A stretch of DNA of 64,000 nt from Bacteroidia bacterium (GTDB lineage Bacteria > Bacteroidota > Bacteroidia > UKL13-3): positions 5,206 through 69,205 of the forward strand of contig JBIMKP010000007.1 in the NCBI GenBank assembly GCA_051861545.1. Direction: 5' to 3'. Position numbers and translations under genes: made by a program. The notes beneath the pieces were generated by a model. It did no database searches. It saw only the letters and a program-made list of their open reading frames with translations, and had not been told where the DNA came from. Below, one piece after another: positions 12,569-63,889 of the stretch. How positions within the stretch are numbered: the first letter of the stretch is position 1; each line of letters starts with the position of its first letter.

Positions 12569-13129
12569 ATGGCTAATACAGGAGATTTATTTAGAGGCTG
12601 TTTCATTAAACATAACAATGAATTGTGCCAAGTAATGGAATACCAACACCGTACACCAGGCAATTTACGTGCGTTTTATCAAGTTGTTCTTAAAAACGTA
12701 AAAACTGGAAAACAAATGGAGCACCGTTACCGTGCAGGTGAAAGTGTTGAAATGGTGCGTGTTGAATTCAAAGAAATGCAATATTTGTATAAAGACGGAA
12801 ATGCCTTGGTTTTAATGGACCCAGAATCTTATGACCAGATTTATGTTGAAGAAAGTATTTTTGGACCTGCCGCTCAATTCTTAAAAGAAGAAATGATTGT
12901 GAAGGTATCTTTTGAAGGTGATATTTGTATTGGTGGTGAAGCTCCAACTTTTGTTATTTTAGAAGTAACTTACACAGAACCAGGTCTTAAAGGTGATACT
13001 GCAACCAACACATTAAAGCCGGCTACTTTAGATAACGGTGCAGAAGTAAGAGTTCCACTTTTCTGTAATGTTGGTGATAAAGTGAAAGTTGATACCAGAA
13101 CTGGAGAATACGTAGAAAGAGTTAAGTAA
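12569..13129 (+). CDS. efp: Elongation factor P
   Basis: 186 aa. KNVKTGKQMEHRYRAGESVE region and three-domain length are typical of EF-P. Confidence 0.85.
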   Translation: MANTGDLFRGCFIKHNNELCQVMEYQHRTPGNLRAFYQVVLKNVKTGKQMEHRYRAGESVEMVRVEFKEMQYLYKDGNALVLMDPESYDQIYVEESIFGPAAQFLKEEMIVKVSFEGDICIGGEAPTFVILEVTYTEPGLKGDTATNTLKPATLDNGAEVRVPLFCNVGDKVKVDTRTGEYVERVK

Positions 13130-13199: not shown

Positions 13200-13868
13200 T
13201 TGATTTATATTTACGTAATGAAAGGAGTTTTTGTCTTATTTCTGGCACTTATTACATCTGTTGAAGTTTCTCAACCAAATTGGGAATTAAAGAAAAAGGG
13301 TCCCGGGATTTTCATTTATACTGCTAATACTGAGTCATCTGCAATTAAAGATATCAAAGCAACTTTAGATTTAAAAGGTAGTTTATCCTCAGTAGTCTCG
13401 GTTGTAACCGATTTAAAATCCTATCCTAATTGGATTTATAATTGCTCAGAAGGCAGAGTGCTAAGTATGGTTGGCGATTCTGAACTCTATTTCTACCAAA
13501 GAATAGAAGCGCCTTGGCCAGTATCTGATAGAGATTTGTGTTCACGTTATAAAATTCGTCAAAATCCGGAAACCTTAGAGTTGACAGTTGTATCACAGGC
13601 AGTTCCAAATTTGTTGCCAGAGATAGAAGGGGTTGTTCGTGTTCAAAGATCGAAAACCCAATGGAGAATTAAACCAATTGGAAATGATATCTTAAAAGGT
13701 GAATATTATTTAAGTGTAGATCCCGGTGGAGATGTACCTGCTTGGCTCATTAATCTATTTATTACGGAAGGTCCGTATGAAAGTCTTTTGAAGTTAAAAA
13801 CCATGATTAATGATGCTCCATATAAAGAAGCAAAGTACTCTTGGTTAAAAGAGTTTAAGGGAAAATAG
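13200..13868 (+). CDS. Hypothetical secreted protein
   Basis: Signal peptide. The true start is probably the Met at 13218 (MKGVFVLFLALITS). No recognised motif. Confidence 0.4.
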   Translation: MIYIYVMKGVFVLFLALITSVEVSQPNWELKKKGPGIFIYTANTESSAIKDIKATLDLKGSLSSVVSVVTDLKSYPNWIYNCSEGRVLSMVGDSELYFYQRIEAPWPVSDRDLCSRYKIRQNPETLELTVVSQAVPNLLPEIEGVVRVQRSKTQWRIKPIGNDILKGEYYLSVDPGGDVPAWLINLFITEGPYESLLKLKTMINDAPYKEAKYSWLKEFKGK

Positions 13869-20260: not shown

Positions 20261-22279
20261 TTACTTGTTCATGCTATCTAAGAGGATTTTCAAGCTTTCA
20301 TCCAAAATTAAATTTGGCTCAACTTTATTGGTTTCTTTTATTTTCTTTCTTTCCTCATCTCTTTTCTTCTTACGCGCATCTTCTGCATTTAATTCAGCTT
20401 TATAAGTTTCTTCGTTTAAACTGGTATAATTTCTCTCTTTTGCTTCATTAAACAATTTAATGTCTTCTAGCAAATAAGCATACTCAGGTTCTTTGTTCAT
20501 TCTTTCTAAATGAGATGCTTTTAAACTGTTAATGACTGATTTATTATCAGCCAAAGCCTTATAAGGTACTGCTGCTATTTCATCGTAAGGAAGTGCGTAT
20601 TTGCTAGCTTCTTCTCCATATTCTTTTGCTGCATAAATCGATGGAAATTCAATATCTGGAATCACGCCTTTATGCTGAGTACTTCCTCCAGAAATACGAT
20701 AAAATTTAGCAATGGTAATTTTAACCTGACCTAATTTTTTTCCATCCATCATCATAAACTGGTTTAAATCGGTCATGTTTTGAACCGTACCTTTTCCAAA
20801 AGTTTTTTCTCCTACAACAATTCCTCTGCGGTAATCCTGGATTGCAGCTGCAAAAATTTCAGATGCAGAAGCGCTAAATCTGTTAACCATTACCATCATT
20901 GGGCCATCCCAGAAAATATTATCATCTCTATCTTCTTCTGAATTGGCAACACCATAAGCATCTTTTACTTGTACTACTGGTCCTTTTTTAATGAATAATC
21001 CGGTTAGTTCAACCGCTTCTTGTAATGAACCTCCACCATTGTTTCTAAGGTCGATAATAAATGCTTCTGCAGAATCTTTTTTCAATTCAGTAATCAATCT
21101 TTTTACATCTTTTGTGGTGCTTTTGTAATTTGGATCTTTACGTTGCATTCCAGCAAAATCGAGGTAAAAGGTGGGAATGCTGATAACTCCTACTTTAACT
21201 TTCTTTCCGTTTAATTCAGCTTCTTTTATACTCCCTTTGGCACTTTGGTCTTCCAATACAATTTTATCACGTGTTATCTCAATAATTTGGGTTTTAGCAT
21301 TGGTGGCATCTGCAGGTATAATTTCTAAACGAACAAGGGTACCTTTTTTTCCTCTAATTAAACCAACAACATCATCAATTCTCCAATCTAAAATACTAAC
21401 CATTTCTCCATCTTTACCCTGACCAACAGCTACAATTTTATCATTTGCATGAACTTGTTTGCTCCTGTCAGCTGGACCACCTTTTACTACTTCACGAATT
21501 TTTGTATATTCATTTTCTGTTTGAAGTGTAGCTCCAATTCCTTCTAAACTTAAACTCATACTGGTATTAAAATCCTCTGCCATTCTTGGTGAAAAATAAT
21601 TGGTATGAGGGTCGGCAATTTCTGTTAGTGAATTTGCGAAAAATGAAAACACATCTTCATTTTTAGTTTTACTTAGTTGCTTTAGAAGATTGTCGTAACG
21701 TTTTGTTAAATCTGTTGCACAAACTTTTGGGTCTTTGCCACCAGATTTTAATTGTAAAAACTCCATTTTAATCTTTCTTTTCCACAACAAATCATATTCT
21801 TTATAATTGGCACACCAGGTAGCATTCTCTCTATTTGTTAATAATGAATCTTTAGTTGTAAAATCAAAATTCGATTTCAATAAATCTTTTGTGAAATAGA
21901 TTCTTTCTTCTAATCTTTTTTGATACAAATTGTACATGTCAAATGCCTTTTGCACATTTCCCATCATCAAGTCATCATCTAATTTATAACGGAATTGTTC
22001 AAATTGCTCAATATCTTGCTTTAAGAAATACATTTTCCCAGGATCTAAATTCTCCAAATAAGCATCTAATAAATTTGATGAAAGTTTATCGTCGATGCTT
22101 AATTTTCTTAAATGATATGAATTAAGAATCTGTCCCACTAATTGGTATAATACAGGATGCTGAGATTCCGGTTCGAAGTTTTTTAAAACTACTTTGGTAC
22201 TGTCATTTGCAAAAACAGATGATGTTAAAGCAAATACCGATAGGGTGATGGCAACAAATATTTTTCTCATTGAATGCAA
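20261..22279 (-). CDS. ctp: S41-family carboxy-terminal processing peptidase (tail-specific protease)
   Basis: Signal peptide and PDZ region. S41 catalytic core ...GGGS.../ASASEIFAAA. 672 aa. Confidence 0.8.
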   Translation of the reverse strand: MHSMRKIFVAITLSVFALTSSVFANDSTKVVLKNFEPESQHPVLYQLVGQILNSYHLRKLSIDDKLSSNLLDAYLENLDPGKMYFLKQDIEQFEQFRYKLDDDLMMGNVQKAFDMYNLYQKRLEERIYFTKDLLKSNFDFTTKDSLLTNRENATWCANYKEYDLLWKRKIKMEFLQLKSGGKDPKVCATDLTKRYDNLLKQLSKTKNEDVFSFFANSLTEIADPHTNYFSPRMAEDFNTSMSLSLEGIGATLQTENEYTKIREVVKGGPADRSKQVHANDKIVAVGQGKDGEMVSILDWRIDDVVGLIRGKKGTLVRLEIIPADATNAKTQIIEITRDKIVLEDQSAKGSIKEAELNGKKVKVGVISIPTFYLDFAGMQRKDPNYKSTTKDVKRLITELKKDSAEAFIIDLRNNGGGSLQEAVELTGLFIKKGPVVQVKDAYGVANSEEDRDDNIFWDGPMMVMVNRFSASASEIFAAAIQDYRRGIVVGEKTFGKGTVQNMTDLNQFMMMDGKKLGQVKITIAKFYRISGGSTQHKGVIPDIEFPSIYAAKEYGEEASKYALPYDEIAAVPYKALADNKSVINSLKASHLERMNKEPEYAYLLEDIKLFNEAKERNYTSLNEETYKAELNAEDARKKKRDEERKKIKETNKVEPNLILDESLKILLDSMNK

Positions 22280-22955: not shown

Positions 22956-23705
22956 GTGCGATTTTTAAAAACTTTTGGAATACATATACTGCTAATTGCA
23001 GTGGTTTTATACCTGCTTACCTGGGTGGCAGTAGGCTTTTTGAGTAGTTATACTCGTCATGGTCAGTATCTTACATTGCCAAATTTAAAAGGACTTCCTA
23101 TTGAAGAAGCAGAGAAAGTATTAAACGAAAAGCAACTTCGTTTCATCATTACCGATACGGTTTTTGTTGATGGAATGCCAAAATCTGCTGTTGTTGAGCA
23201 GAATCCGATCCCAAATTCTAAGGTAAAAACAGGCAGAATAATTTATTTAAGCATCAATTCAACAAGTTCAGCAACTGTTATTATGCCCAATTTAATAAAT
23301 AGTTCGCTTCGTTATGCCGAAACGGTTTTAGGCGGAATGGGTTTGCGTTTAGGTGATGTGACTTACAAACCAGATATTGCTCAGAATGCTGTTTTAGACC
23401 AATTATGGAATGGACAAAGTATTCAACCAGGAACTAGAATTCCAAAAGGTGCAGCTATTAATTTAGTTGTGGGTGATGGTAGTGGTGGAGCTTTAGTATC
23501 AATGCCTGATTTAACAGGTTTGAGTTTGCTTGATGCAACAAAAGTTATTGAAGGTTCTATGCTTCAGTTAGGTGCTGTTGTTTACGAAGGCGCGGTTTCT
23601 GATAGTTCAAAAGCAGTTGTCATTCGTCAAAATCCTCCTTTTTCAGAAAGCTCAAGCATCCGCAGTGGCGAAATGGTTGACGTTTTTTTATCAATTAAAA
23701 AATAA
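22956..23705 (+). CDS. PASTA-domain protein
   Basis: N-terminal TM anchor, then three ~65-aa repeats starting LPNLKGLPIEEAEKVL, MPNLINSSLRYAETVL and MPDLTGLSLLDATKVI. Confidence 0.7.
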   Translation: MRFLKTFGIHILLIAVVLYLLTWVAVGFLSSYTRHGQYLTLPNLKGLPIEEAEKVLNEKQLRFIITDTVFVDGMPKSAVVEQNPIPNSKVKTGRIIYLSINSTSSATVIMPNLINSSLRYAETVLGGMGLRLGDVTYKPDIAQNAVLDQLWNGQSIQPGTRIPKGAAINLVVGDGSGGALVSMPDLTGLSLLDATKVIEGSMLQLGAVVYEGAVSDSSKAVVIRQNPPFSESSSIRSGEMVDVFLSIKK

Positions 23706-26539
23706 TGAATTTGAAAAATATCAGATTTCTGTTGGGTTTTATTTTATTGTTGATTTATGGTCAATCGTTTGCTCAAGAGGTAATTCTACCTCTTAAAAAC
23801 AATCCGGCTTTAAATTATTCTGATTTTAATCCTGTTGTAAAAAACAGTTTTAGAAAAAAAGCGAATTTGAGTTTGCCTTTTGTTGATTTTTTTGAAAATG
23901 GAAATCTTCCTAATAGAACCCGATGGTCAGATTCATCTACAAGCATTTTAAATCGATATTTGATTTTTGATTCTTATAATGAAAATGGTCAGATTTATGC
24001 TGGAGTTAATGGTATTGCCGATAGACTTACATCAAAAACAATTGATTTGAGTTCATCTTCAAGAAATTTAGTTTTAAGTTTTAATATTCAGGCAGGAGCC
24101 AGTTTTGTAGATGGAGATAGCATTGTTTTAGAAGCTTTGTCTGCAAATCAAGTTTGGACAACAATCTGGTCGGCTGGAACAATCTTAAAAACACCAAGAG
24201 AAATTTATCTTTTAATTGATCCTTCAGTTTTTAAAAGTTCAAATTTTAGTTTCAGATTTAGTTTTTTAACCAATTTTGATGAAGATAAAGTCGAATCTTT
24301 TATCCTAAGTAAACTGGTTTTAGCAAATCAAATTCCTTTACCTTTTTATTCTTCAATTCAAAATGGAGTTTCGTTTAACCAAGCTTTTTCTGGTCCCGAT
24401 TTAACTACTGAATCTATTAAAGCTGGTACTTTTATGGGTCAAGGATTTGTATTTGATGCTTTAAACAATAAAAATATTGCTTATACAGGTTCTTATGGCG
24501 GTGCTGATACTTTGTTTATGCATTCAATTCCTGTTTCAGCTTATCCGGCAGGCGATTCATTGTTTTTAGGTTTTTCAGTTGAAGCCCTTGCTGGTGCTAA
24601 AAATAGCGATAGTTTGATATTGGAATTTAGAAACAATTTGGGAGTTTGGACAAGGCAATCTGTTTTTCATCTTCAGAACAATTCTGGCAGTAGAGACTAT
24701 CAGATTTTTTTGAATTCAGGTAGAAATCGCCATCCATTTTTCAGAGCAAGATGGATTCTAAAATCTGGATTATCTGTAAATGATACAGCTAAATTTTTAC
24801 TAGGTGCAATTCGTTTTACTAGAAGAATTTCTCTTCCTTTTGTTGATGATTTTTCAGCTTCAAGAATTAAACCTGATAGAACTAAGTGGGTTGATTCTTT
24901 TGTTTATATTAACAACCAATTTCCAATAGAACAGCCTTCTGTTCAGGTTGCTACTTTCGATGGATTAAATCAGTTTGGAAATGCTTATTCTTTATTTGCT
25001 TTAAAAGGTGATGCCGATTTTTTGAATACCTATTCAATGAATTTGAGGTCATTAAAGCCATCAGATTCTGTATATCTAAGCTTTTTTTATCAGTATGAAT
25101 TACAAGGTGAAACAGGACAATTTTTTCCTGATGATTCATTTACTGTGATGATGAGAAATAGTAGATTTAATCAAAATGAATTTAAAATTTTATGGCAATT
25201 ATCGGCCAAAGATGCTACTCCAAATACATTTGTAAGAGTTGATATTCCTATAACAGACACTGCTTTGTTTCACGATGATGTGCAAATACGATTCAAAAAT
25301 AGAGGCAGTTTAAGTGGAAATTTGAGTCATTGGCACCTCGATTTTGTTCGTTTCGATAAAGGAAGAAGAAAGAATGATGCCTATAATGATGTTTCATTAA
25401 CCAATACACCTCCTGTAAGATTAGGAATGTATTCATCAATGCCTTGGAAACATTACCAAGCTAATAAGGCAAAGTATTCAAACGATTCTGTGAGTTTAAG
25501 ATTTATAAACCACGACCAACAAACCTATTTGTTAGATTATTTTAGAACAATTACCAATCCCGAAGGAAATAATATCGAACAATTTAATAATGTAAGTAAT
25601 ATATTTTTTAGAAGTGATACCATTGTAAAATTCAATAGACCATTTGCTTTCTCAAGTTCTTTTGGTTCTGCTGATAGTTTAGTGTTTAATACAACTTATA
25701 AAATTGGATTATCAAGCAGTCAGAAAGATGCTATTTCTTCAAATGATACTTTTTCTGTACCTACCATTTTTAGCAATTATTTAGCTTATGATGATGGAAC
25801 TGCAGAGGCTGGTTATGGAATTAAAAACAAAACCAATAGTGGTGCAGCATTAAAATATGTTTTAGAAGTTCCTGACACTTTATATGGAATGTATGTTTTC
25901 TTTAATCAAAGTGAAAGTAATGTTAGCAATCAATCATTTAATTTAAAGGTTTGGAAATCTATTTCTAGGGTAATGGAACCTGCAAATGATGATGTTTTGT
26001 TGTATAAATCGGCCGACTTAAAACCCGTTTATGGCAACAAAGTTAATGGCTTTGCTGCATTTAAAATTGAACCACCCATTGCATTAACAGATAGTTTTTA
26101 TATTGGTTGGGAACAAGCTCAAGCTTATGTGTTGAATATTGGTATAGATAAGAATTTTCCTGCTGGCATCAATAGAAATATGTTTTTTAAGCAAGATGGA
26201 CAATGGTATCCAACAGATTTTACAGGTGCTTTAATGATGAGACCAATTGTTGGAAAATGGATTGATTTACCAGCTTCAATAAATGAAAATCAAGCTATTG
26301 ATTCGGAAAAATTCAGTGTTTATCCAAATCCTTCATCGGGCAAGTTTAAAATCAATTCAAAAAATAATGAAGAGTTCTTAGTTAAACTTTACGATTTATC
26401 TGGAAGAGAATTAAGTCAAACAGAAACCCAAGAAAAAGAAGTTGATTTAAGCGGATTTAATTTTGGTGTTTATTTGCTTAAAATTGAATCAAAACAAAGC
26501 AGAAATTCAAGTGTTTTAAAGATTATAATACAACCCTAA
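23705..26539 (+). CDS. Large secreted protein with T9SS C-terminal sorting domain
   Basis: Signal peptide. 944 aa. C-terminus ...FSVYPNPSSGKF...GVYLLKIESKQSRNSSVLKIIIQP is a Por_Secre_tail-type T9SS tail. Confidence 0.7.
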   Translation: MNLKNIRFLLGFILLLIYGQSFAQEVILPLKNNPALNYSDFNPVVKNSFRKKANLSLPFVDFFENGNLPNRTRWSDSSTSILNRYLIFDSYNENGQIYAGVNGIADRLTSKTIDLSSSSRNLVLSFNIQAGASFVDGDSIVLEALSANQVWTTIWSAGTILKTPREIYLLIDPSVFKSSNFSFRFSFLTNFDEDKVESFILSKLVLANQIPLPFYSSIQNGVSFNQAFSGPDLTTESIKAGTFMGQGFVFDALNNKNIAYTGSYGGADTLFMHSIPVSAYPAGDSLFLGFSVEALAGAKNSDSLILEFRNNLGVWTRQSVFHLQNNSGSRDYQIFLNSGRNRHPFFRARWILKSGLSVNDTAKFLLGAIRFTRRISLPFVDDFSASRIKPDRTKWVDSFVYINNQFPIEQPSVQVATFDGLNQFGNAYSLFALKGDADFLNTYSMNLRSLKPSDSVYLSFFYQYELQGETGQFFPDDSFTVMMRNSRFNQNEFKILWQLSAKDATPNTFVRVDIPITDTALFHDDVQIRFKNRGSLSGNLSHWHLDFVRFDKGRRKNDAYNDVSLTNTPPVRLGMYSSMPWKHYQANKAKYSNDSVSLRFINHDQQTYLLDYFRTITNPEGNNIEQFNNVSNIFFRSDTIVKFNRPFAFSSSFGSADSLVFNTTYKIGLSSSQKDAISSNDTFSVPTIFSNYLAYDDGTAEAGYGIKNKTNSGAALKYVLEVPDTLYGMYVFFNQSESNVSNQSFNLKVWKSISRVMEPANDDVLLYKSADLKPVYGNKVNGFAAFKIEPPIALTDSFYIGWEQAQAYVLNIGIDKNFPAGINRNMFFKQDGQWYPTDFTGALMMRPIVGKWIDLPASINENQAIDSEKFSVYPNPSSGKFKINSKNNEEFLVKLYDLSGRELSQTETQEKEVDLSGFNFGVYLLKIESKQSRNSSVLKIIIQP

Positions 26540-26857: not shown

Positions 26858-28819
26858 ATGTTTGAATCAAAAAGAATTCTATTTAAAAATGGATGGCTGA
26901 AATTAATTTTTTGGCCATTTGTTTTTATAATGATTTTAGAATCGGTTTTTTGCAATGAGCCTTCAACTAAAACTACTGAATTCCTCAATCATGATACCAC
27001 CGTTCATTATGTTGGAATTGAAGCATGCCGCTCTTGTCATACAGATATTTATAATAGTTTTATTCAAACGGGCATGGGGCAATCATTTGCTCCAGCTACC
27101 CACACAAAATCTTCTGCAAAATTCAATCACCAAAAGCCAGTATTTGATAAAAAACTAGGCTTATATTATTTGCCAATATGGATTGGCGATTCTCTTTATA
27201 TCAAAGAATTTGGCTTAGAAGGTAAGGATACAATTCATCAAAGAATTGAGAGAGTTGATTATATAATTGGTTCAGGACAACATACCAATTCACATATAGC
27301 TATCAGAAATGGATATGTATTTCAATTGCCTTTAACTTGGTATGCACAAAAACAGCAATGGGATTTACCTCCAGGATTCGAAAACGGACGAAATGTGCGT
27401 TTTTCAAGAGAAGTTGGTATGGAATGTATGAGTTGTCATAATGCCATGCCTAAGGCCGATGAATCTGCCATAAACAAGTTTATTTCCATTCCCAATGGTA
27501 TTGATTGTGAAAGATGCCATGGGCCAGGAGAATTACATGTAAAAGAAAAATTGGCTGGTAATATTGTTGATACAAGTAAATATGCTGATTATACTATTGT
27601 TAATCCTAAAAGATTAAGTTGGGAGCGCCAAACGGATTTATGTCAGCGCTGTCATTTACAAGGAAATGCTGTTTTAAAACCAGGAAAAGGTTTTGGCGAT
27701 TTTAGACCTGGTATGAAATTGGCCGATTACTACAATGTTTTTATGCCCAAGTTTAAAGGTGCAGAAAACGAGTTTATCATGGCTTCTCATGCGCAGCGTT
27801 TACAGGAGAGTAAGTGTTTTGTTCAATCAAATAAAAACATGGAGTTAAATGCGGTAAATACGGGGATGAATTTAACTTGTATTAATTGCCACAATCCACA
27901 TGTGAGCGTGAAGTTTACTGGTAAGCAAATCTTCAACAATGCATGTATGAAATGTCATGATTCAAAAGCATGTAAAGAAATTCCAGAAAATAGAAGAGCC
28001 ATTAATGATAATTGTGTTAGTTGTCACATGCCTAAAAGCGGAACTGTGGATATTCCTCACGTTACAGTTCACGACCATAAAATTAGGATACCAACTAAAG
28101 CAAACGAAGTTAAATCTATAAAAGAATTTGCTGGTTTGTATTGTGTTACCAAAGGAAACCTTACCGAATTAGACCAAGCACAGGCCTTTTTAAATTACCA
28201 AGAAAAATTTGAAGGTGACTCGAAAATTTCATTTGATTCAGCATCCTTTTTTATACAAAAACTAACAGGAACTGAATCTTATTCAGCATTACAGATACAT
28301 TATGCATTCCTGCAAAAAGATGATTTAGGAGTGTTAAAAATAGCATCAAATATAGACTCCAAACTTATTCAAGATTTTTGGATGGCATACCGAATTGGAC
28401 AATCTGCTTTTAATATACAAGATTATACAAAGGCTGAAATTTGGTTAAGAAGAGCCTGTGAAATAGCGCCCAATAATTTAAAGTTCAAAAACAAACTAAT
28501 GTTGGCTTGTTTAATGAATGGTAAAATAGAAGAGGCAATTCGAATACAAGAAAACTCTCTTTCAATTTATCCAAATCAAGAAGATGTTTGGTCGAATTTA
28601 GGCTTTGCTTATGCCAATTTACAGCAATATGAAAAAGCGCTTGAGTGTTATAACAAGGAGTTGAAATTATTTCCATATCATCAACAAGCATTAATAAACA
28701 GAGCAGGTGTTTTTCATTTATTAGGAAAAGATGATTTGGCCATTAAGGATTTAAAATTGGTTTTAAAAATCAATCCAAATGAAAGCAAAGTGAAAGAAAT
28801 GTTAGCTGCCTTAAAGTAG
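26858..28819 (+). CDS. Heptaheme cytochrome c fused to C-terminal TPR repeats
   Basis: Seven CxxCH motifs: CRSCH, CMSCH, CERCH, CQRCH, CINCH, CMKCH, CVSCH. N-terminal TM/signal. C-terminal ~200 aa is TPR-like (..AYANLQQYEKALECYNKELKLFPYHQQALINRAGVF..). Confidence 0.75.
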   Translation: MFESKRILFKNGWLKLIFWPFVFIMILESVFCNEPSTKTTEFLNHDTTVHYVGIEACRSCHTDIYNSFIQTGMGQSFAPATHTKSSAKFNHQKPVFDKKLGLYYLPIWIGDSLYIKEFGLEGKDTIHQRIERVDYIIGSGQHTNSHIAIRNGYVFQLPLTWYAQKQQWDLPPGFENGRNVRFSREVGMECMSCHNAMPKADESAINKFISIPNGIDCERCHGPGELHVKEKLAGNIVDTSKYADYTIVNPKRLSWERQTDLCQRCHLQGNAVLKPGKGFGDFRPGMKLADYYNVFMPKFKGAENEFIMASHAQRLQESKCFVQSNKNMELNAVNTGMNLTCINCHNPHVSVKFTGKQIFNNACMKCHDSKACKEIPENRRAINDNCVSCHMPKSGTVDIPHVTVHDHKIRIPTKANEVKSIKEFAGLYCVTKGNLTELDQAQAFLNYQEKFEGDSKISFDSASFFIQKLTGTESYSALQIHYAFLQKDDLGVLKIASNIDSKLIQDFWMAYRIGQSAFNIQDYTKAEIWLRRACEIAPNNLKFKNKLMLACLMNGKIEEAIRIQENSLSIYPNQEDVWSNLGFAYANLQQYEKALECYNKELKLFPYHQQALINRAGVFHLLGKDDLAIKDLKLVLKINPNESKVKEMLAALK

Positions 28820-30122: not shown

Positions 30123-31589
30123 TTACTTTTTTATAATTCTCTTACTTATTATCTCTTCATTTTCTGTTTGAATAACCAATAAGTATATCCCTTCTTTTAA
30201 ATCACCGATATTTAATTGCAATGAGTTTTGTCCTTTCGAAAATTCAGTTTGATTGTTGAATGTAGTAAGTAATTGTCCGTTAATATTATACATTGAAATA
30301 CTTAGCTTTTGTGAGTTTTTTAATTCAAATTCTAAATTTAAATTAGATTCTGTAGGGTTTGGAAAAACATTATAAAATTCAAGTGCATCTGATTTTTGTT
30401 GGCAAGCTTCAAAGTAAACGCATTGCTTAGTAGGTTTATGTAGTATGAAAACATCTTGGTATTCTTTTATTAAGTCAGCGGAAATTCTTTTAGGAAGAAC
30501 ATTGAATATTCTATCGTTTGGTTCATACCATACTATTATATCCGACCTATAGCCTGTTTTATCATTTGCACTTTTTACATCTCCAGATTTTATTAAAATA
30601 GGAATGAAACCTGGTAGTTTTTCAATCAATTTTTTTTCTGCATTTTTCCTAGCTTCAATTGCTTTGGGATAAGTATTTGGATTTAAATTATGTTCCTTCA
30701 TGTATTTCATATCCACTTCAGTTAAACCATCATCCAAACTATAACTTAGCCATTTTTGTCCCAAATCATCTGTTACTAAAGTTGGAATAGGAATTGATTT
30801 ATAAATACTATCAGCATTCTTTCTGGGCAAATTAGAAGTTGGTAAACTAAATTGTGATGGATTATTTTTTAAAACTTCATTTAAACTGTCGCTTACATGC
30901 ATTGTCAGCTTGTTACCAAAACTCACTTTAAATTTTGGACCAAATACAGGTAAATCGTTTTCTTTTAGATTAAATGTTGTAGTTGAGCCATATTTGGAAT
31001 ACCTTGTGTAGATTACATTTCCTTTTTCAGTAGTGGCAATTGGAACCTTTATTTCATTATTTTCAATTGTAATTCCTAAGCTTTTTAGTTCATCATTATT
31101 TAACTCAATAACATGAATGTTTTTCAAATTGATAATCCGCTTAGCAAATGTTGATTTAATAGAATCACTTGGACTTTCTTGTTTGTTATTATCAAGTTCT
31201 GAAAATATGAGTTGTTCTCCTACTTCTTGTTTTATTTGCTTGTTTTTAGTTTGTTTAACTGGAGTTTTAGCATTTCGTTTTTGAACAGGTTTTATATCAA
31301 CAGTTTTATTTTTTACAGGCAATAATTGATTCAATTTTGTTTCCGGTTTTGGTTGTTTTGAAGCCTTACTGACTTTGACATCATTTTGAAAAAAAATGTT
31401 CATCCAAACAACTAAAATTAATATGGTACTCATAGTGATAATTATTAAAAAAGGGTAATTATTCGAAACAGGTTTAAGATTCGATTTAGGCTTATTGCCA
31501 AGGTTTTTGCTTATATCCGAAAGGCTTAAAATTGGCTCTTCATTAGCAGCATTTTTTATAAGCTCATTTAAGTGATTTTCAGGATTCAT
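30123..31589 (-). CDS. Membrane protein cotranscribed with the ECF sigma factor (putative anti-sigma) carrying a T9SS C-terminal sorting domain
   Basis: Overlaps the sigma gene by 11 nt. 45-aa N-terminal cytoplasmic segment and a TM (FLIIITMSTILILVVWMNIFF). C-terminus ...VFPNPTESNLNLEF...GIYLLVIQTENEEIISKRIIKK is a T9SS tail. Confidence 0.55.
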   Translation of the reverse strand: MNPENHLNELIKNAANEEPILSLSDISKNLGNKPKSNLKPVSNNYPFLIIITMSTILILVVWMNIFFQNDVKVSKASKQPKPETKLNQLLPVKNKTVDIKPVQKRNAKTPVKQTKNKQIKQEVGEQLIFSELDNNKQESPSDSIKSTFAKRIINLKNIHVIELNNDELKSLGITIENNEIKVPIATTEKGNVIYTRYSKYGSTTTFNLKENDLPVFGPKFKVSFGNKLTMHVSDSLNEVLKNNPSQFSLPTSNLPRKNADSIYKSIPIPTLVTDDLGQKWLSYSLDDGLTEVDMKYMKEHNLNPNTYPKAIEARKNAEKKLIEKLPGFIPILIKSGDVKSANDKTGYRSDIIVWYEPNDRIFNVLPKRISADLIKEYQDVFILHKPTKQCVYFEACQQKSDALEFYNVFPNPTESNLNLEFELKNSQKLSISMYNINGQLLTTFNNQTEFSKGQNSLQLNIGDLKEGIYLLVIQTENEEIISKRIIKK

Positions 31590-32091
31590 TTTTTGCTCCT
31601 TTCTCTGCTTGAATGAGCAGTTTTAGTTGTTGACGCGCTTTGTATAAAGTTGATTTTACCTTTCTTTCTTGAATATCTAAAATTTGAGAAATTTCAACAT
31701 AACTAAACCCTGAAATTTCAAAAAGAGTTAATACTTCTTGTTCAATAGGACTTAACTTCGAAAGCCAGAACTGAAGTTCAAGTTTTAATAAATTGCTATC
31801 GATTTCCTGTCCCCCAATTTTATTCTCAATTTGTTCTTTATTCCATGTACCCTTGAATTTATTTCTTCTAAGGGATTTTAAAAACAGGCGATGAGCTATA
31901 CCAAACAAATAAAACAAAAACTGATGATGAGATTTAATTTGATCAAATTTTTCGAAAGCAATTAATGTTGTTTCACTAATTAAATCTTTAGCATCATCTT
32001 TATCCCAAACCAAAGTTTGCACATACCTGCAAAGCCGAGGATGCAAGGGCGTATACAATTCCATGAATTTATCTTTAGTTGATTGGTCCAA
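31579..32091 (-). CDS. ECF (sigma-70 family) RNA polymerase sigma factor
   Basis: 170 aa. Region 2 (..DAKDLISETTLIAFEKF..) and region 4 HTH (..GFSYVEISQILDIQERKVKSTLYKARQQL..). Confidence 0.75.
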   Translation of the reverse strand: MDQSTKDKFMELYTPLHPRLCRYVQTLVWDKDDAKDLISETTLIAFEKFDQIKSHHQFLFYLFGIAHRLFLKSLRRNKFKGTWNKEQIENKIGGQEIDSNLLKLELQFWLSKLSPIEQEVLTLFEISGFSYVEISQILDIQERKVKSTLYKARQQLKLLIQAEKGAKNES

Positions 32092-32271
32092 ATCCTATTT
32101 TTTTGTATCTGTAAGTTCCATAAGGGTAGTGAAAAGTTATAAATTTGAATCAATTAGTATGTATTAGGCTTATAATGAGGAGATAAATATTTTGTTGCCA
32201 TTTAATTCCTGGAGAATTTTCCATAAAAAAAGCTGCCCGAAAGCAGCTTTTTTATTTTGAGGAAGGAAGAA

Positions 32272-33673: not shown

Positions 33674-34333
33674 ATGTATTCATTTACAGAGGAAAACTAC
33701 TTAAAAGCCATTTACAAACTGCAGGAAAGACATGAAGATGCAGTCAATACGAATTCAATTGCTGCTTCTTTAGAGACTAAAGCAGCTTCTGTAACCGATA
33801 TGATTAAAAAACTTTCGGCCAAAGATTTATTGGTTTACGAAAAATATAAAGGTGTTCAATTAACAGCTTTGGGTAAAAGAATTGCAATTGATACGGTTAG
33901 AAAACACCGTTTATGGGAAACCTTTTTAGTTGAAAAACTCAAATTTTCTTGGGATGAGGTTCACGAATTAGCTGAAGAATTAGAGCATATTCAATCTGAA
34001 AAACTCATTGATAAATTAGATGAGTTCCTAGGTTTTCCTGCTCACGATCCTCACGGAGACCCTATACCTCAGCGCGATGGTGTTATCAAACAAAGAAGCC
34101 TTTTTCTTTTAAGTGAATTAATTGATGGGCAAAGTGGTATAGTAAGTGGCGTGGTAGATCACAGTTCACTATTTCTTCAATACCTCGAAAAAATGAATTT
34201 GGTTTTGGGTAAACAAATTCAAATTACAGAACAAAATCAGTTCGATAAAAGTTACCAGATTTTATTAAATGAAACAGAAAACCTACACATCAGTGTGGAG
34301 GTTGCTAAAAATGTATTGGTGAGGTTAATTTAA
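33674..34333 (+). CDS. mntR: DtxR/MntR-family metal-dependent transcriptional regulator with C-terminal FeoA-like domain
   Basis: N-terminal winged helix (ENYLKAIYKLQE...), a metal-binding helix region, and a C-terminal SH3-like FeoA domain. Confidence 0.75.
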   Translation: MYSFTEENYLKAIYKLQERHEDAVNTNSIAASLETKAASVTDMIKKLSAKDLLVYEKYKGVQLTALGKRIAIDTVRKHRLWETFLVEKLKFSWDEVHELAEELEHIQSEKLIDKLDEFLGFPAHDPHGDPIPQRDGVIKQRSLFLLSELIDGQSGIVSGVVDHSSLFLQYLEKMNLVLGKQIQITEQNQFDKSYQILLNETENLHISVEVAKNVLVRLI

Positions 34334-34334
34334 T

Positions 34335-36200
34335 ATGTCAGAAAAATCATTAAGCGAAGTCCACGAATCGGTGGATGTAAATAAAACCAAAGGTAGATTT
34401 AGAAAACTATTGGCCTTTATTGGTCCCGCATATTTAGTAAGTGTTGGATACATGGACCCAGGAAACTGGGCTACAGATATAGCAGGTGGAAGTAGGTTCG
34501 GTTATAGTTTAATTTGGATTCTTTTAATGAGTAACCTGATGGCTTTGTTGTTACAAAGTTTGGCCGCTCGTTTGGGAATTGTAAAAGGTTGGGATTTGGC
34601 TCAAGCAAGTCGACAACAATATCCAACTTGGGTAAATGTTTCGTTGTATGCTTTTGCAGAAATTGCTATTGCTGCTACTGATTTGGCTGAAATTATTGGT
34701 ATGGCAATTGGATTGAATTTATTGTTTGATTTACCTCTTATATGGGGAGTTGTAATTACCGTTTTTGATACTTTTTTATTGCTATTTCTTATCAATAAAG
34801 GCATCCGAAGATTAGAACTTTTTATCATCAGTTTGGTCGCAATTATAGGATTGTCTTTTATTGCTCAAATGTTCATTGTACAACCCGAAATTGTTCCTTT
34901 AATGAAAGGTTTTATTCCGGGTGATTTAAGCGGAGAGGCCTTATATATTGCAATTGGAATTATTGGTGCAACTGTAATGCCACATAATTTGTATTTACAT
35001 TCTTCATTAGTTCAAACTCGCAGATTTAGTAGAGATGAACAAGGTATAAGAACTGCTCTCAAATTCAATTTTATTGATTCGACTATTGCATTAAATGCAG
35101 CGTTTTTTGTGAATGCTGCTATTTTAGTTTTAGCTGCATCTGCTTTTTATAAAAATGGTTATAATGATGTGGTTGATATTTCAAACGCTCATGAATTATT
35201 AAAAGGTTTATTTGGAAACTTAGCTCCAACGTTGTTTGCAATTGCGCTGATTGCTGCTGGACAAAGTTCTACTGTTACAGGTACATTGGCCGGACAAATT
35301 GTAATGGAAGGTTATTTGAATTTAAGGATTAGTCCTTGGTTAAGAAGAATTATAACCCGCGCTATTGCTGTTGCTCCAGCAGTATTTACTATTTTGTATT
35401 TGGGTGAAGAAAAATTGGGTGAATTATTGATTCTTAGTCAGGTTGTTTTAAGTATTCAATTAGGATTTGCTATTGTTCCATTAATCCATTTTAGTTCATC
35501 CAAAGCAATTATGGGTGAATTCAGAATTTCAAAATGGATGACCATTGTTTCATGGATTGTTGCAATTGTTATTATTGGTTTAAATATGAAACTGGTAATA
35601 GAAGAAGTTTCAGGATTTTTAGAAAGCGAATATGGAGATATTTTCATCTTAAAACTATTCGTTTTATTGGTAGTGATTTTTGCTGTTTCTCTTTTAATTT
35701 GGATTATAGCGGCACCTCTTTTCAAAAAAATCATTCATAAACAAATCATACCTCATGGTGGAGCTATGAGTTTGAAATTGAAAAAAGTAGAGTCGTTTAA
35801 AAATATTGGTATTGCAGTAGATTTTACTTCAACAGATATGGCGAGTATTTCTTATGCTATACATTTAGGTGGAATCAAAGCCAATTATGTTTTAATCCAT
35901 GTGGTTGAATCGGCAGCAGCAATGCAATATGAAGGGCAAGTGGAAGATTCGGAAACCAAAGCAGATAGAGAATATTTATTGTCGTATACCAATGAACTTA
36001 GTCAAAAAGGTTACAACATAAAACCATGTTTAGGATTTGGAAATAGGGTAGAAGCCATCTCCAAATTTGTAAAAGAAGAGAATACAGATTTGTTAATAAT
36101 GGGAGCTCACGGACATCAAACCATGAAGGATTTTATCTTTGGTTCAACAGTTGAATCTGTAAGACATAAACTTGAAATTCCTGTTTTGGTGGTGAAGTAA
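34335..36200 (+). CDS. mntH: NRAMP-family Mn2+/Fe2+ transporter MntH fused to a C-terminal universal stress protein (UspA) domain
   Basis: NRAMP motif GYMDPGNWATDI. Eleven TM segments. C-terminal ~140 aa has the Usp fold (..LIMGAHGHQTMKDFIFGSTVESV..). Confidence 0.8.
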   Translation: MSEKSLSEVHESVDVNKTKGRFRKLLAFIGPAYLVSVGYMDPGNWATDIAGGSRFGYSLIWILLMSNLMALLLQSLAARLGIVKGWDLAQASRQQYPTWVNVSLYAFAEIAIAATDLAEIIGMAIGLNLLFDLPLIWGVVITVFDTFLLLFLINKGIRRLELFIISLVAIIGLSFIAQMFIVQPEIVPLMKGFIPGDLSGEALYIAIGIIGATVMPHNLYLHSSLVQTRRFSRDEQGIRTALKFNFIDSTIALNAAFFVNAAILVLAASAFYKNGYNDVVDISNAHELLKGLFGNLAPTLFAIALIAAGQSSTVTGTLAGQIVMEGYLNLRISPWLRRIITRAIAVAPAVFTILYLGEEKLGELLILSQVVLSIQLGFAIVPLIHFSSSKAIMGEFRISKWMTIVSWIVAIVIIGLNMKLVIEEVSGFLESEYGDIFILKLFVLLVVIFAVSLLIWIIAAPLFKKIIHKQIIPHGGAMSLKLKKVESFKNIGIAVDFTSTDMASISYAIHLGGIKANYVLIHVVESAAAMQYEGQVEDSETKADREYLLSYTNELSQKGYNIKPCLGFGNRVEAISKFVKEENTDLLIMGAHGHQTMKDFIFGSTVESVRHKLEIPVLVVK

Positions 36201-36492: not shown

Positions 36493-36897
36493 ATGATTTG
36501 TCCTTTTGAAATAGGAGATGAAAAGAAATTTTCAGTAACAGTTCAAACAAACGATACAGCAAGTTTCGATAGTGGTGAAGTGCATCCGGTTTATGCAACT
36601 TTTGCTTTAGGAAGAGATGCTGAATGGTGTTGCAGGTTGTTTGTTTTGGAAATGAAAGAAGATGGGGAAGAAGGTATTGGTACTTTTCTTTCCATACAAC
36701 ATCATTCTCCTGCTTATGTAGGTTCAAAGGTTGATATTACAGCAAAGGTGAAATCAATTCAAAAAAATGAAATCATTTGCAGCTATGAAGCAAAAGTTGG
36801 AGAGCGATTGGTAGCAAGTGGGGAACAAGGACAAAAAATTTTGAAAAAGGAAAGATTAGAACAATTATTCGAAAAAATTAAACAAGACAGTGAGTAA
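36493..36897 (+). CDS. Hotdog-fold thioesterase-like protein (putative)
   Basis: 134 aa. Pattern ..VHPVYATFALGRDAEWCCR.. fits a hotdog acyl-CoA thioesterase. Confidence 0.35.
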   Translation: MICPFEIGDEKKFSVTVQTNDTASFDSGEVHPVYATFALGRDAEWCCRLFVLEMKEDGEEGIGTFLSIQHHSPAYVGSKVDITAKVKSIQKNEIICSYEAKVGERLVASGEQGQKILKKERLEQLFEKIKQDSE

Positions 36898-37342
36898 AAC
36901 AACAGGAGTAAATATAGTCAATAAGAAGGCCTCATTTGAATTTCATATTCTTCAAAAATACACCGCAGGCATTCAGCTTACAGGTACAGAAGTGAAATCG
37001 ACAAGGCTGGGAAATGTGAATTTAAATGAAGCATTTTGTTTCTTTAAAAACGATGAATTGTATGTGCGTGGAATGAATATTGGAACCTTCAAACAAGGTT
37101 CATACAATAACCATGAAACATTAAGAGTAAGGAAACTTTTATTGAAAAAAGCAGAGTTATCAAAGCTTCAATTCAAATCAAAAGAAAAAGGATTTTCTAT
37201 TGTGCCTATTAAATTGTTTGAATCTGAAAGAGGATTTTTGAAATTAGAAATTGCATTAGCACAAGGTAAAAAAGCCTTCGATAAACGCGAAAGCATCAAA
37301 GAAAGAGATGTAGAAAGAAGTATGAGAAGGAATCAGGAGTAA
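36890..37342 (+). CDS. smpB: SsrA-binding protein SmpB
   Basis: 150 aa. N-terminus (..IVNKKASFEFHILQKYTAGIQLTGTEVKS..) and basic C-terminal tail are typical of SmpB. Confidence 0.85.
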   Translation: MSKTTGVNIVNKKASFEFHILQKYTAGIQLTGTEVKSTRLGNVNLNEAFCFFKNDELYVRGMNIGTFKQGSYNNHETLRVRKLLLKKAELSKLQFKSKEKGFSIVPIKLFESERGFLKLEIALAQGKKAFDKRESIKERDVERSMRRNQE

Positions 37343-44083: not shown

Positions 44084-44157
44084 GGGGGATTAGCTCATTT
44101 GGCTAGAGCGCTTGCCTGGCAGGCAAGAGGTGACCGGTTCGAATCCGGTATTCTCCA
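44084..44157 (+). tRNA. tRNA-Ala (anticodon GGC)
   Basis: Folded by hand. Acceptor GGGGGAT/ATTCTCC with the G3:U70 Ala identity pair. D-arm GCTC-ATTTGGCTA-GAGC. Anticodon arm CTTGC-CTGGCAG-GCAAG. Variable loop AGGTG. T-arm ACCGG-TTCGAAT-CCGGT. Discriminator A. No encoded CCA. Confidence 0.85.
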
Positions 44158-61498: not shown

Positions 61499-63889
61499 TT
61501 AGATTTTATTGATTTTTTTAACTTGAACTAGCCCTTTTTCATCAATCATTCTAATTATATATATACCTTCTTTTAATTCCTCTAATTGAAGGCTAATTAA
61601 TGATTCATTCTTAGAGATTTCAGATTTAAATTTAATTTCTCCTTTTGTATCAAAAATTTCAATTGTTTTGATTTTTGATTGTGTGTTTTCGATAAATATT
61701 TGATTGTCAAATGGATTTGGGTAAATAGTAGGATAGTCCAAATTTGCCTCACTTAAACTATTAACAAGTTTTTTCTCAGTAATTAATTTCCAAGAGCTTG
61801 AATCTTGGGCTCCTGGCACAATTTCGATATCAACTCCTTTACTTAATGGATATACTTTATTTTCAATTTTATTAAATAAGGAAAGCTTATGTAGCTTGGT
61901 TTCTTCCAGTACTTTAAGTTTTAGTTTCGAACTGGCTCCAATTATTAAATCAATAGTGTCGATTTTATTATCATCGTTCGATCTTAAATCACTACATAAC
62001 CAAATATTGTCTTTTGATTTTGAGGCGATGTATATATTTCCAGCAAATAATTTAATGATGTCTTCCAAAGCGCTGTATTCTTTTTTCGCACTTTCATTGT
62101 TGCCAATCAGCAATAAATCAGAACCAAAATTGTCTCTAACTTCAATAATTGTTTGTTGGGTTTGAGATTTAAAATATACTGGTGAACTTAAATTTGTTTT
62201 ATGTGATTCTTTAAAATTTCCAGAAGGTGTATTGTTAAACTGAATTAGAAATCCACCAAAAGGAGCAACATACTGACTTCCCGTTCCAGAATTTGAAAAT
62301 GCATTCCATGCCACATAATTCCCACTTTTAGCATCTCTTTGATAAATACTGGGATTTACATTAGTGAAATCTGCTTGGTCATAAATTTTATTCCAATCAA
62401 TATTACATGGATAAGGATTCCCTAATAAATTCCAGCCATCAGCCGTTGCATCTCCACTATTGGTGTAATCGGCAATACTGTTAATTGGAATGTTTCCAGA
62501 ATTCGGAGTTCCTGTAAAATCAATATTTACATTACCATGTGATGATAAGTTTTGATACAAAACATTCGAATTACTTCTATCACCTCTTATTAAAACCCTA
62601 AATCCTTTTCCGGAATTCATTTGGGTATTTAACTGATTTATTGGTTCCCAGCCATAATTGGCATTAGGTAACGATACTGTTTCGTCGTAATAAAATGCTG
62701 ATGAGTTATTGGTTTGTGTTGAATCAAATCCATATATTTTCCCTCCTTGGCCTGTTATATGGATATCATCAATTAAATCAGTAAAATTTCCATTTGTAAT
62801 AGGGCTGCTTAAAAAACGATATCGTTTCCATCCAGCAGGAATTGTTTGATTAAATGTTAAATTTCCTATGCTTAGTCCAGAACTTTCGCCCAACATAGCA
62901 GTACCAGATGTATCAGATAAAAAGGTAAATAGTCCTGAATTGGTTTTAATTAATCCATTGTTTATTAGTTGACTACCAGCTTTTATATAACATGATGAGG
63001 TATTTGTCACTAACTCCAAGCTACATGTTGAGTGAATAGATAATGAGCCTGAAACAAATAATTTCTTTCCACTTGGAACAAATAGTTTAAAATTAGCTGT
63101 ATTAAACGTTCCATTGCTAATTAATAAGGAATCAGAATCATTTTCAAAATAAAAACTGACAGCATTAGAACTTCCGGTGCATTTTAAGTTTCCATTAGAA
63201 AGTATAAGATTTCCGTTTAAGTGTAATTCTCTTACAGCTCCAATTCCTACTGAATTAGCAATGTCTAAACTTCCGCTTTGTATTTCTAAGTTTTTTTGAA
63301 TACTAATGTCCAAATTGCTAGCGGCTGATAAACTTATCGTTCCTGAACCAGCATTAATAACTAAATCATTTTTAATTAAAGTGGTATTTCCACTTAATTG
63401 ACAATTTGTAGAAGCTGATGGATTGTTGAATTTTAGAAAACCCCAATTGGCGCCAGGTATTACTGATGGCCATTGTCTAAATTCTACAATACTTCCCGTT
63501 TCAAAGGTTTCGGTCCCAGAAAACAATGCCGAACCTAAAGAACCAACATGTTGCTGAATATATGTTCCCGCAGAATCAATCCTGAAAAATTTGCCACTAC
63601 CATCTAAGAAAACAGAATAGTTACAAAACAAAACGCCATTAGTTTTTATATGTAATCCTCTTATGGTAGCAATTCCACTGCTTGTTTTGGTATGAGATAA
63701 AACCAAAATACAAGTATTGTTTAACGCGCTTGGATTTGCACCGCTACCATCAGTATTTATTCCCCAACCTGTTGGATCATTAAAATCACTACTGTTGTTA
63801 TTTGAGTAATAAAAAGTCTGTGCTTTGATGATATTCCCCGAACATATCAAAACAAATAAAAGTAAGAATATTGACTTCATGTTTTTCAT
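61499..63889 (-). CDS. Large secreted protein with T9SS C-terminal sorting domain (beta-helix-like adhesin-type repeats)
   Basis: Signal peptide. 796 aa. C-terminus ..TIYPNPFDNQIFIE...GIYIIRMIDEKGLVQVKKINKI is a T9SS tail. Confidence 0.7.
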   Translation of the reverse strand: MKNMKSIFLLLFVLICSGNIIKAQTFYYSNNNSSDFNDPTGWGINTDGSGANPSALNNTCILVLSHTKTSSGIATIRGLHIKTNGVLFCNYSVFLDGSGKFFRIDSAGTYIQQHVGSLGSALFSGTETFETGSIVEFRQWPSVIPGANWGFLKFNNPSASTNCQLSGNTTLIKNDLVINAGSGTISLSAASNLDISIQKNLEIQSGSLDIANSVGIGAVRELHLNGNLILSNGNLKCTGSSNAVSFYFENDSDSLLISNGTFNTANFKLFVPSGKKLFVSGSLSIHSTCSLELVTNTSSCYIKAGSQLINNGLIKTNSGLFTFLSDTSGTAMLGESSGLSIGNLTFNQTIPAGWKRYRFLSSPITNGNFTDLIDDIHITGQGGKIYGFDSTQTNNSSAFYYDETVSLPNANYGWEPINQLNTQMNSGKGFRVLIRGDRSNSNVLYQNLSSHGNVNIDFTGTPNSGNIPINSIADYTNSGDATADGWNLLGNPYPCNIDWNKIYDQADFTNVNPSIYQRDAKSGNYVAWNAFSNSGTGSQYVAPFGGFLIQFNNTPSGNFKESHKTNLSSPVYFKSQTQQTIIEVRDNFGSDLLLIGNNESAKKEYSALEDIIKLFAGNIYIASKSKDNIWLCSDLRSNDDNKIDTIDLIIGASSKLKLKVLEETKLHKLSLFNKIENKVYPLSKGVDIEIVPGAQDSSSWKLITEKKLVNSLSEANLDYPTIYPNPFDNQIFIENTQSKIKTIEIFDTKGEIKFKSEISKNESLISLQLEELKEGIYIIRMIDEKGLVQVKKINKI

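Follow-up and report, generated by a model that had tools for sequence, protein, structure and literature searches.

A 64,000-nt stretch of contig JBIMKP010000007.1 (GenBank assembly GCA_051861545.1, positions 5,206 to 69,205 of the forward strand; G+C 32%), which comes from a Bacteroidia bacterium of the UKL13-3 lineage and is here called the window, carries on its minus strand a two-gene operon. The first gene (31579-32091) encodes an extracytoplasmic function (ECF) sigma factor of 170 aa. The second (30123-31589) encodes a 488-aa partner, a single-pass membrane protein that ends in a type IX secretion system (T9SS) C-terminal sorting domain (CTD). The two open reading frames (ORFs) overlap by 11 nt, in ATGAATCCTGA; this overlap had been pointed out in the original prediction and is confirmed on the minus-strand sequence. 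The operon is bounded by a hairpin on its upstream side and by a convergent mltG/yceG-type gene on its downstream side, and since only two genes lie within these bounds, the partner is the sole candidate cognate regulator of the sigma factor. The GC-rich hairpin, followed by a T-run (AAAAAAGCTGCCCGAAAGCAGCTTTTTT, 32228-32255, minus strand), was read directly off the sequence and probably terminates the upstream Zn-peptidase gene, insulating the sigma operon from it. It is not among the calls of a consensus terminator scan; a similar hairpin occupies the same place in L007 and L008, two of the related loci (L numbers) that are compared below.

The sigma factor and its membrane-anchored partner

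The sigma factor matches Pfam Sigma70_r2 (37.5 bits, cut-off 24) and Sigma70_r4_2 (46.5 bits, cut-off 25.7) as well as TIGR02937 (64.2 bits, cut-off 42.9), which bears out its initial identification as an ECF sigma factor; at 170 aa, it has no extension and fits the ECF (group 4) class of the sigma-70 family. By the NCBIfam model it falls short of the ECF21/GFO_1088 (PG0214) subfamily, its best match, NF058625 sigma_PG0214, reaching 73.4 bits against a cut-off of 130. Translation is most simply started at a TTG codon, because the 9-10 codons that separate it from the first ATG are conserved (LDQ-T/S-EKN..F) and differ between L001 and L009 by synonymous changes alone, while the sequence 5' of the TTG diverges between loci.

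The partner opens with a conserved, putatively cytoplasmic and sigma-binding segment (residues 1-44; 31458-31589, minus strand). In the AlphaFold 2 (AF2) model, residues 3-16 and 23-30 form short helices at low confidence (pLDDT 54-68), followed by a basic stretch. An N-terminal motif, L-x-x-L-F-x-x-A-R-x-x-x-P ... E-[VI]-x-x-L, recurs in all homologues down to 31% identity and in the wider family; loss of the segment in relatives, which had been raised as a way to refute an anti-sigma role, did not occur. Between the window and L007, codons 5-44 differ by five synonymous changes and one non-synonymous change, leaving the segment 98% identical in amino acids, as compared to 74% for the anchor and 69% for the tether that follow. 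By this comparison, the N-terminal segment evolves under purifying selection.

Residues 45-67 (31389-31457, minus strand) make up a single transmembrane signal-anchor that includes Met53, as judged from hydropathy (Kyte-Doolittle maximum 2.46) and from an AF2 helix spanning residues 45-68. The cytoplasmic N-terminus of about 45 aa and the one transmembrane segment proposed at the outset are thus found as 44 residues and a single hydrophobic run. The same arrangement, with the N-terminal segment and anchor in place of a signal peptide, is present in 117 full-length family entries. In these, a median of 48 residues precedes the anchor and the uncharged run has a median length of 23 residues (interquartile range 21-26); Lys and Arg average 3.75 before the anchor and 1.74 after it, Asp and Glu 0.30 before and 1.73 after. 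The excess of Lys and Arg on the N-terminal side, a positive-inside bias, indicates that the partner is an N-in, C-out signal anchor.

Past the anchor, residues 68-157 (31119-31388, minus strand) form a K/Q/P-rich tether that is predicted to be disordered, with pLDDT below 50 throughout. It is the least conserved part of the protein, and its disorder-biased composition holds across the family (0.68 for the tether vs 0.55 for the folded domain, paired Wilcoxon p=1e-20). If extended, 90 residues would measure about 30 nm by our estimate; the tether could thus allow the CTD to contact the translocon with the N-terminus still held in the inner membrane.

The tether leads into a conserved extracytoplasmic alpha/beta domain of 245 residues (158-402; 30384-31118, minus strand), which is delimited by the full-length model and the family alignment and has no solved structural relative. 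Its signature motifs are ELxxEELxxLGI, LVTDDLGQKW, IPILVRSGD, YRADIIxWYEP and CxYFEACQ. The last of these (CVYFEACQ in the window protein, residues 390-397, 30399-30422) is a near-invariant C-x-Y-F-E-A-C-Q and places two invariant Cys residues about 10 residues before the CTD; from their position at the domain/CTD junction, they may form a periplasmic disulfide or mark a processing site.

The CTD itself (residues 403-488; 30126-30383, minus strand) is of type A. It matches two curated hidden Markov models (HMMs) over their full length, PF18962 at 59.5 bits (cut-off 27) and TIGR04183 at 48.9 bits (cut-off 23), the latter being the check that had been proposed for the suspected sorting tail. It is also canonical by structure comparison and is conserved relative to L007. 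A decaying, non-functional CTD is excluded by the full-length HMM match, purifying selection and retention throughout the family. PF18962 is the sole Pfam match, both for the window protein and for each of 10 diverse relatives; none has an OMP_b-brl_2 barrel, and the structure models consist of an alpha/beta domain plus a beta-sandwich, with no barrel.

Two further ORFs in the window (23705-26539, plus strand, 944 aa; 61499-63889, minus strand, 796 aa) combine a signal peptide and a type A CTD with no other Pfam domain. The organism therefore uses the T9SS, and these ORFs serve as a reference for ordinary cargo: the partner CTD outscores both of theirs (52.3 and 44.9 bits), and both start with classical signal peptides of about 22 residues, MNLKNIRFLLGFILLLIYGQSFAQ followed by E and MKNMKSIFLLLFVLICSGNIIKAQ followed by T. 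Judged by simple criteria, the partner lacks the cleavable Sec signal peptide of a T9SS cargo.

This comparison bears on the simplest alternative, in which the partner is an ordinary sigma-controlled T9SS cargo. Its first 67 residues would then be a long, conserved and cleaved targeting sequence, similar to the extended signal peptide region of autotransporters, and the sigma factor would merely drive its expression while being regulated by something else. The canonical CTD would suit such a protein, as would the absence of a detectable known anti-sigma domain in the partner; ECF sigma factors without an anti-sigma factor do exist, e.g., SigP with PorX, and the window protein has a small-residue site, SKA followed by S, 9 residues past its hydrophobic run. 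Yet no cleavage motif is conserved after the run among the homologues, and the run, at 23 residues, is longer than the signal-peptide range. The hydrophobic run of a signal peptide typically has 7-15 residues. Moreover, the cytoplasmic segment, which on this account would be discarded, is the most strongly conserved part of the protein between close relatives, and genuine cargo of the same genome has short, classical signal peptides. We regard this alternative as quite improbable, also in view of the gene linkage described below.

The position of the start codon bears on the two options of the original prediction, one of which took the internal Met (MSTILILVVW...) as the start of a plain secreted cargo. 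The Met53 codon lies at 31431-31433 of the window, and gene callers sometimes begin the gene there. As the sole product this form is not supported: Met53 as the only start is rejected in view of the conserved, constrained N-terminus, which is encoded also where gene callers skipped it. In three family proteins called from the anchor Met, the upstream frame is open and, read from an ATG overlapping or abutting the stop codon of the sigma gene, it yields this motif too; these short-form calls are, on the sequence, start-calling errors.

A Met near the cytoplasmic edge of the anchor is nevertheless a family trait, present in 103 of 117 members against a background of 1.6%, and without exception in the close clade. 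Possible roles are those of an internal start or of a determinant of proteolysis or of insertion. The first of these roles would allow one gene to make two products, an anchored anti-sigma factor and a short form, initiated at Met53 without the sigma-binding segment, that is secreted by the T9SS. Besides the conservation of the Met, the choice of this codon as the start by gene callers in several genomes would agree with such a scheme. Against it, the Met53 form (MSTILILVV...) has no positive n-region, unlike the signal peptides of the same genome (MNLKNIRF..., MKNMKSIF...), and the Met is equally explicable as a structural or protease-recognition feature of the helix. Dual products are, in our view, very improbable.

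A widespread family next to ECF sigma genes

A direct homologue search returned only 11 close homologues. A family profile built from the middle domain without the CTD and searched against 1.84 billion proteins retrieved 319 cluster representatives (clusters at 50% identity), 110 of them at E<=1e-10; a broad middle-domain alignment (A4) used in an indexed protein search found 10 proteins. Many members contain several partial copies of the middle domain and reach lengths of up to about 1,100 aa. Although the profile was free of the CTD, our own HMM detects a CTD in 153 of the 157 family proteins examined, and at least three of the four proteins that lack it look like fragments; in 10 of 10 diverse members, Pfam confirms the CTD and finds no further domain. 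Databases label family members only as "T9SS type A sorting domain-containing protein", and the named sources are uncultured Bacteroidota/Bacteroidia, one Chitinophaga metagenome-assembled genome (MAG) and Candidatus Kapabacteria.

Conservation of the sigma/partner pair in relatives, which had been suggested as a check, was found without exception: an ECF sigma gene lies directly upstream of the partner in all 20 evaluable distinct loci. Besides the window and twelve close-clade loci, they are a clade whose middle domain is 21-24% identical, a multi-repeat form of 1,107 aa, a clade with a variant N-terminus and the three short forms after re-annotation. Between the sigma stop and the partner start there is either an overlap of 4 to 17 nt or an 11-nt gap, while the genes that flank the pair are unrelated between loci. 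An assembly or gene-fusion artefact is excluded by the recurrence of the architecture in 20 independent loci. Such strict, translationally coupled linkage is hard to square with a partner that is merely a cargo gene under sigma control.

In two loci, the pair has a paralogue. A second sigma gene, about 46% identical, lies 1-2 kb downstream of the CTD-bearing pair in L001 (8430-10438) and L004 (9535-11649), and its partner, of 506-510 aa, resembles the family in its N-terminal motif, has an anchor and, at weak similarity, repeat motifs (LVPV...W[FY]FW/KP), and carries no CTD. That a CTD-less paralogue keeps the same N-terminus beside a paralogous sigma factor is a further point against a cleaved targeting sequence for cargo. 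Two other family members, in L014 and L016, lie on different contigs of one MAG, LF-bin-458, so that a genome can hold more than one copy of the module.

The loci also share a regulatory signature. About 20 nt upstream of the sigma TTG in the window is an ECF-type promoter-like element, TAACTTTT-N12-GGAACTTAC (32111-32139, minus strand). All close-clade loci carry TAACTTTT-N12-GGAACTTAC(T/A)G-N-TGTA 5' of the sigma gene, and distant clades keep a relaxed form, (G)TAACTT-N-ACTTAC, at the same side. When about 227 kb of loci were scanned, the relaxed motif proved almost confined to the upstream regions of family sigma genes; it also precedes the paralogous second sigma gene in L001 and L004, where the sequence reads TAACTTTTT-N-G[TG]ACTTAC and is related to the family motif. 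Because the AAC element and the downstream block are spaced within the usual range of ECF promoters, the element is presumably the autoregulated promoter of the two-gene operon.

The window holds one exact match of the element and one near-match, at 12945-12973 (plus strand), upstream of a START/SRPBCC-domain ORF (13200-13868). As a regulon member the near-match was rejected: with one mismatch, it falls within the coding sequence of efp, and chance could account for it (at least two matches in 3 of 100 shuffles). In L053, an SRP54/ffh gene that adjoins the family sigma operon has a relaxed match (672-700, TAACTTCGCACCTGCAAAAATGCACATAT) about 30 nt upstream, which may be due to chance. A scan of metagenome contigs with TAACTTTT-N12-GGAACTTACWG gave 31 loci, none with a sigma or family gene downstream; the matches are mostly one coding sequence repeated in gut contigs, at chance level.

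A candidate anti-sigma factor addressed to the type IX secretion system

The reading that we favour, and which in our judgement stands about an even chance, is that the pair is an autoregulated ECF sigma/membrane-anchored anti-sigma module whose anti-sigma factor is addressed to the T9SS. An anti-sigma role is suggested by four lines that point the same way: the two genes are strictly linked and translationally coupled, the partner has the N-in topology of a single-pass protein, its cytoplasmic segment of about 45 residues is constrained, and the Dma proteins provide a precedent. Sigma binding by residues 1-44 would follow from this genomic context and from Dma1 of Bacteroides thetaiotaomicron, whose first 40 residues suffice to bind the ECF21 sigma factor Das1 (PMC10927553). 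The original prediction is partly supported: its second option, in which the partner is an anti-sigma factor of an unusual kind and interacts with the T9SS through its outer part, fits all of the context and architecture, and Dma and PorA are precedents for it in the same phylum.

Dma1 has the same order of parts, with a short N-terminus, a transmembrane helix, a long disordered tether and a C-terminal domain in the outer membrane; proteolytic fragments of Dma1 have been observed, and release of the sigma factor by proteolysis has been proposed (PMC10927553). Similarly to the protein described here, Dma proteins are restricted to Bacteroidota and are encoded next to an ECF sigma gene; in both types, about 40 cytoplasmic residues at the N-terminus precede a single inner-membrane helix and a long disordered tether in the periplasm, and the C-terminal domain is bound for the outer membrane (PMC10927553; PMC13088901). 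The two differ in that last domain, which in Dma is an eight-stranded OMP_b-brl_2 barrel and here is a novel-fold domain plus a beta-sandwich T9SS type A CTD, so that targeting to the outer membrane would go via the T9SS instead of barrel assembly. The partner has all the architectural features of Dma save the defining beta-barrel; it is not a Dma member, and by analogy may work like one.

A regulatory CTD has its precedent in PorA of Porphyromonas gingivalis. The PorA CTD, which its authors describe as the first with a dual role, is a periplasmic ligand of PorY and switches on the PorXY-SigP pathway, and it still does so with PorA artificially anchored in the inner membrane (PMC12152298). The two systems have in common a regulatory type A CTD, an ECF sigma output and signalling by an inner-membrane-tethered CTD protein (PMC7712824; PMC12152298). 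By contrast, PorA, a small and soluble cargo that carries a cleavable signal peptide, acts via a histidine kinase and a response regulator and is not encoded with the sigma factor, whereas here the CTD protein is itself the membrane-anchored sigma partner, which would couple the two directly in one polypeptide.

Combining these elements, we propose that the partner inserts N-in in the inner membrane, where its two-helix N-terminus of about 45 residues would hold the sigma factor in the cytoplasm, as do the first 40 residues of Dma1. The disordered tether of about 90 residues would span the periplasm, and at the outer membrane the type A CTD would dock to the T9SS translocon (SprA/Sov with PorV), bringing the novel-fold domain with it. 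Engagement with the T9SS or attempted export, possibly modulated by a ligand of the novel domain, would lead to cleavage of the tether and then to intramembrane proteolysis of the remaining stub; with the signal running inward in this way, the freed sigma factor would transcribe at least its own operon from the TAACTTTT-N12-GGAACTTAC promoter.

The logic resembles that of FlgM and sigma-28, where flagellar type III export of the anti-sigma factor makes sigma activity report the state of the machine. In both cases, as proposed here, the anti-sigma factor is the substrate of a secretion machine. FlgM is soluble and exits the cell whole, whereas the partner is anchored and sigma release would need proteolysis; the systems and the proteins are unrelated. 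In FecA-FecR-FecI and RseA-type systems, a single-pass anti-sigma factor relays an envelope or outer-membrane event to an ECF sigma factor by sequential proteolysis (PMC10927553). The partner differs in that contact with the outer membrane would be made by its own CTD, and neither a TonB-dependent transducer nor a FecR, RseA, RskA or zf-HC2 domain was detected: zf-HC2, RskA, RseA_N and FecR have no Pfam or NCBIfam match in the partner, even at E<=1.

Class II anti-sigma domains such as CnrY and NepR are very short and consist of two helices (PMC6101532). The partner likewise has a short cytoplasmic module with two short helices predicted before the anchor at low confidence (the helices of residues 3-16 and 23-30), and shows no detectable sequence similarity to these proteins or other solved examples of the CnrY/NepR clamp, which belong to other taxa and have other C-terminal parts. 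Its N-terminal profile finds only chance-level matches among PDB sequences and Pfam, and zero proteins in the indexed protein search. By these comparisons, the partner appears to be neither a class I nor a FecR-type nor a detectable class II anti-sigma factor. The literature searched contains no description of an anti-sigma factor, or of any ECF partner, with a T9SS CTD.

Several observations weigh against a T9SS-addressed anti-sigma factor. The N-terminal segment has no sequence or profile similarity to any known anti-sigma domain, and its helices are modelled by AF2 at low confidence. PorA engineered to be tethered in the inner membrane did not reach the cell surface (PMC12152298), which leaves the export of such a tethered protein hypothetical; moreover, the translocon would be blocked by a polypeptide that stays threaded through it. 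The CTD-less paralogous pair in L001 and L004 implies that the CTD is dispensable for basic sigma/partner function, and two members in one genome suit ligand-specific sensing better than a single report on T9SS status. No convincing second copy of the promoter motif was found near T9SS or other genes in the window or in the approximately 227 kb of loci, which leaves no visible regulon link to secretion. Finally, the proposed model does not account for the strongly conserved anchor Met.

Alternatively, the partner could be an anti-sigma factor confined to the inner membrane and periplasm, whose never-exported CTD acts as a ligand or decoy that reports T9SS status. It might, for instance, compete with cargo for access to PorV or to the translocon, or bind a periplasmic partner in the manner of the PorA CTD and PorY. 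The N-in anchor and the periplasmic CTD would fit this arrangement equally well. It is harder to see why mere display of a CTD would call for a large, conserved and often multi-copy domain and a tether that spans the periplasm, or why the CTD would retain the full canonical profile of an export signal; since PorA signalling is independent of a functional T9SS, PorA offers no precedent for a sensor of T9SS status. We consider a CTD that is never exported an unlikely alternative to a T9SS-addressed anti-sigma factor.

Neighbouring genes and implications

Elsewhere in the window, a tail-specific protease of the periplasmic S41, Prc/Tsp type is encoded at 20261-22279 (minus strand), about 8 kb from the operon. 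Proteases of this type are site-1 proteases for some anti-sigma factors; nothing ties this one to the sigma/partner pair. A 249-aa PASTA-domain protein (22956-23705, plus strand) has its stop codon abutting the start of the 944-aa CTD cargo at 23705, which suggests co-transcription. At 26858-28819 (plus strand) is encoded a 653-aa protein with multihaem cytochrome c motifs (paired CXXCH, MtrC/MtrF-like domain) and C-terminal TPR repeats. On the other side of the operon, a DtxR-family repressor with a FeoA domain immediately precedes a transporter of the Nramp (MntH) type that has a universal stress protein (Usp) domain fused to its C-terminus (33674-36200, plus strand); the two are likely a manganese or iron uptake unit with an unusual Usp fusion. 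The smpB gene lies at 36890-37342 (plus strand), and a tRNA gene at 44084-44157 (plus strand) is the only Rfam match in the window at the gathering threshold.

The prevailing view is that T9SS CTDs serve to export cargo that is soluble in the periplasm. A CTD with a second, regulatory role, that of PorA, was first reported in 2025, and the first anti-sigma factors shown at the outer membrane, the Dma proteins, in 2024. The architecture described here is robust, widespread and unexpected: a canonical CTD fused to an anchored ECF sigma partner in a large family would unite the PorA and Dma ideas, and what is new would be a module for outer-membrane addressing and sensing added to an ECF sigma/single-pass anti-sigma pair. 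For genome annotation, some family members are mis-started at the internal Met, which hides their N-terminal module. The family also brings a new conserved extracytoplasmic domain that has no solved relative, and a promoter motif that can be used to find the regulon.

With doubt slightly outweighing confidence, we suggest that Bacteroidota and relatives such as Candidatus Kapabacteria possess a widespread class of trans-envelope signalling proteins, with at least 319 clusters, in which a novel sensor domain is carried by the CTD to the outer-membrane translocon or through it, a sigma factor is held at the inner membrane by the N-terminus, and secretion activity or a surface cue leads directly to sigma release. 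If this is true, the class would parallel, for the T9SS, both the export control of the FlgM type and the dual-membrane anti-sigma factors of the Dma family. It would raise the questions of whether the T9SS can engage tethered substrates, whether sigma activity is coupled to secretion flux or to surface sensing, and how T9SS-bearing bacteria control their envelope or secretome genes.

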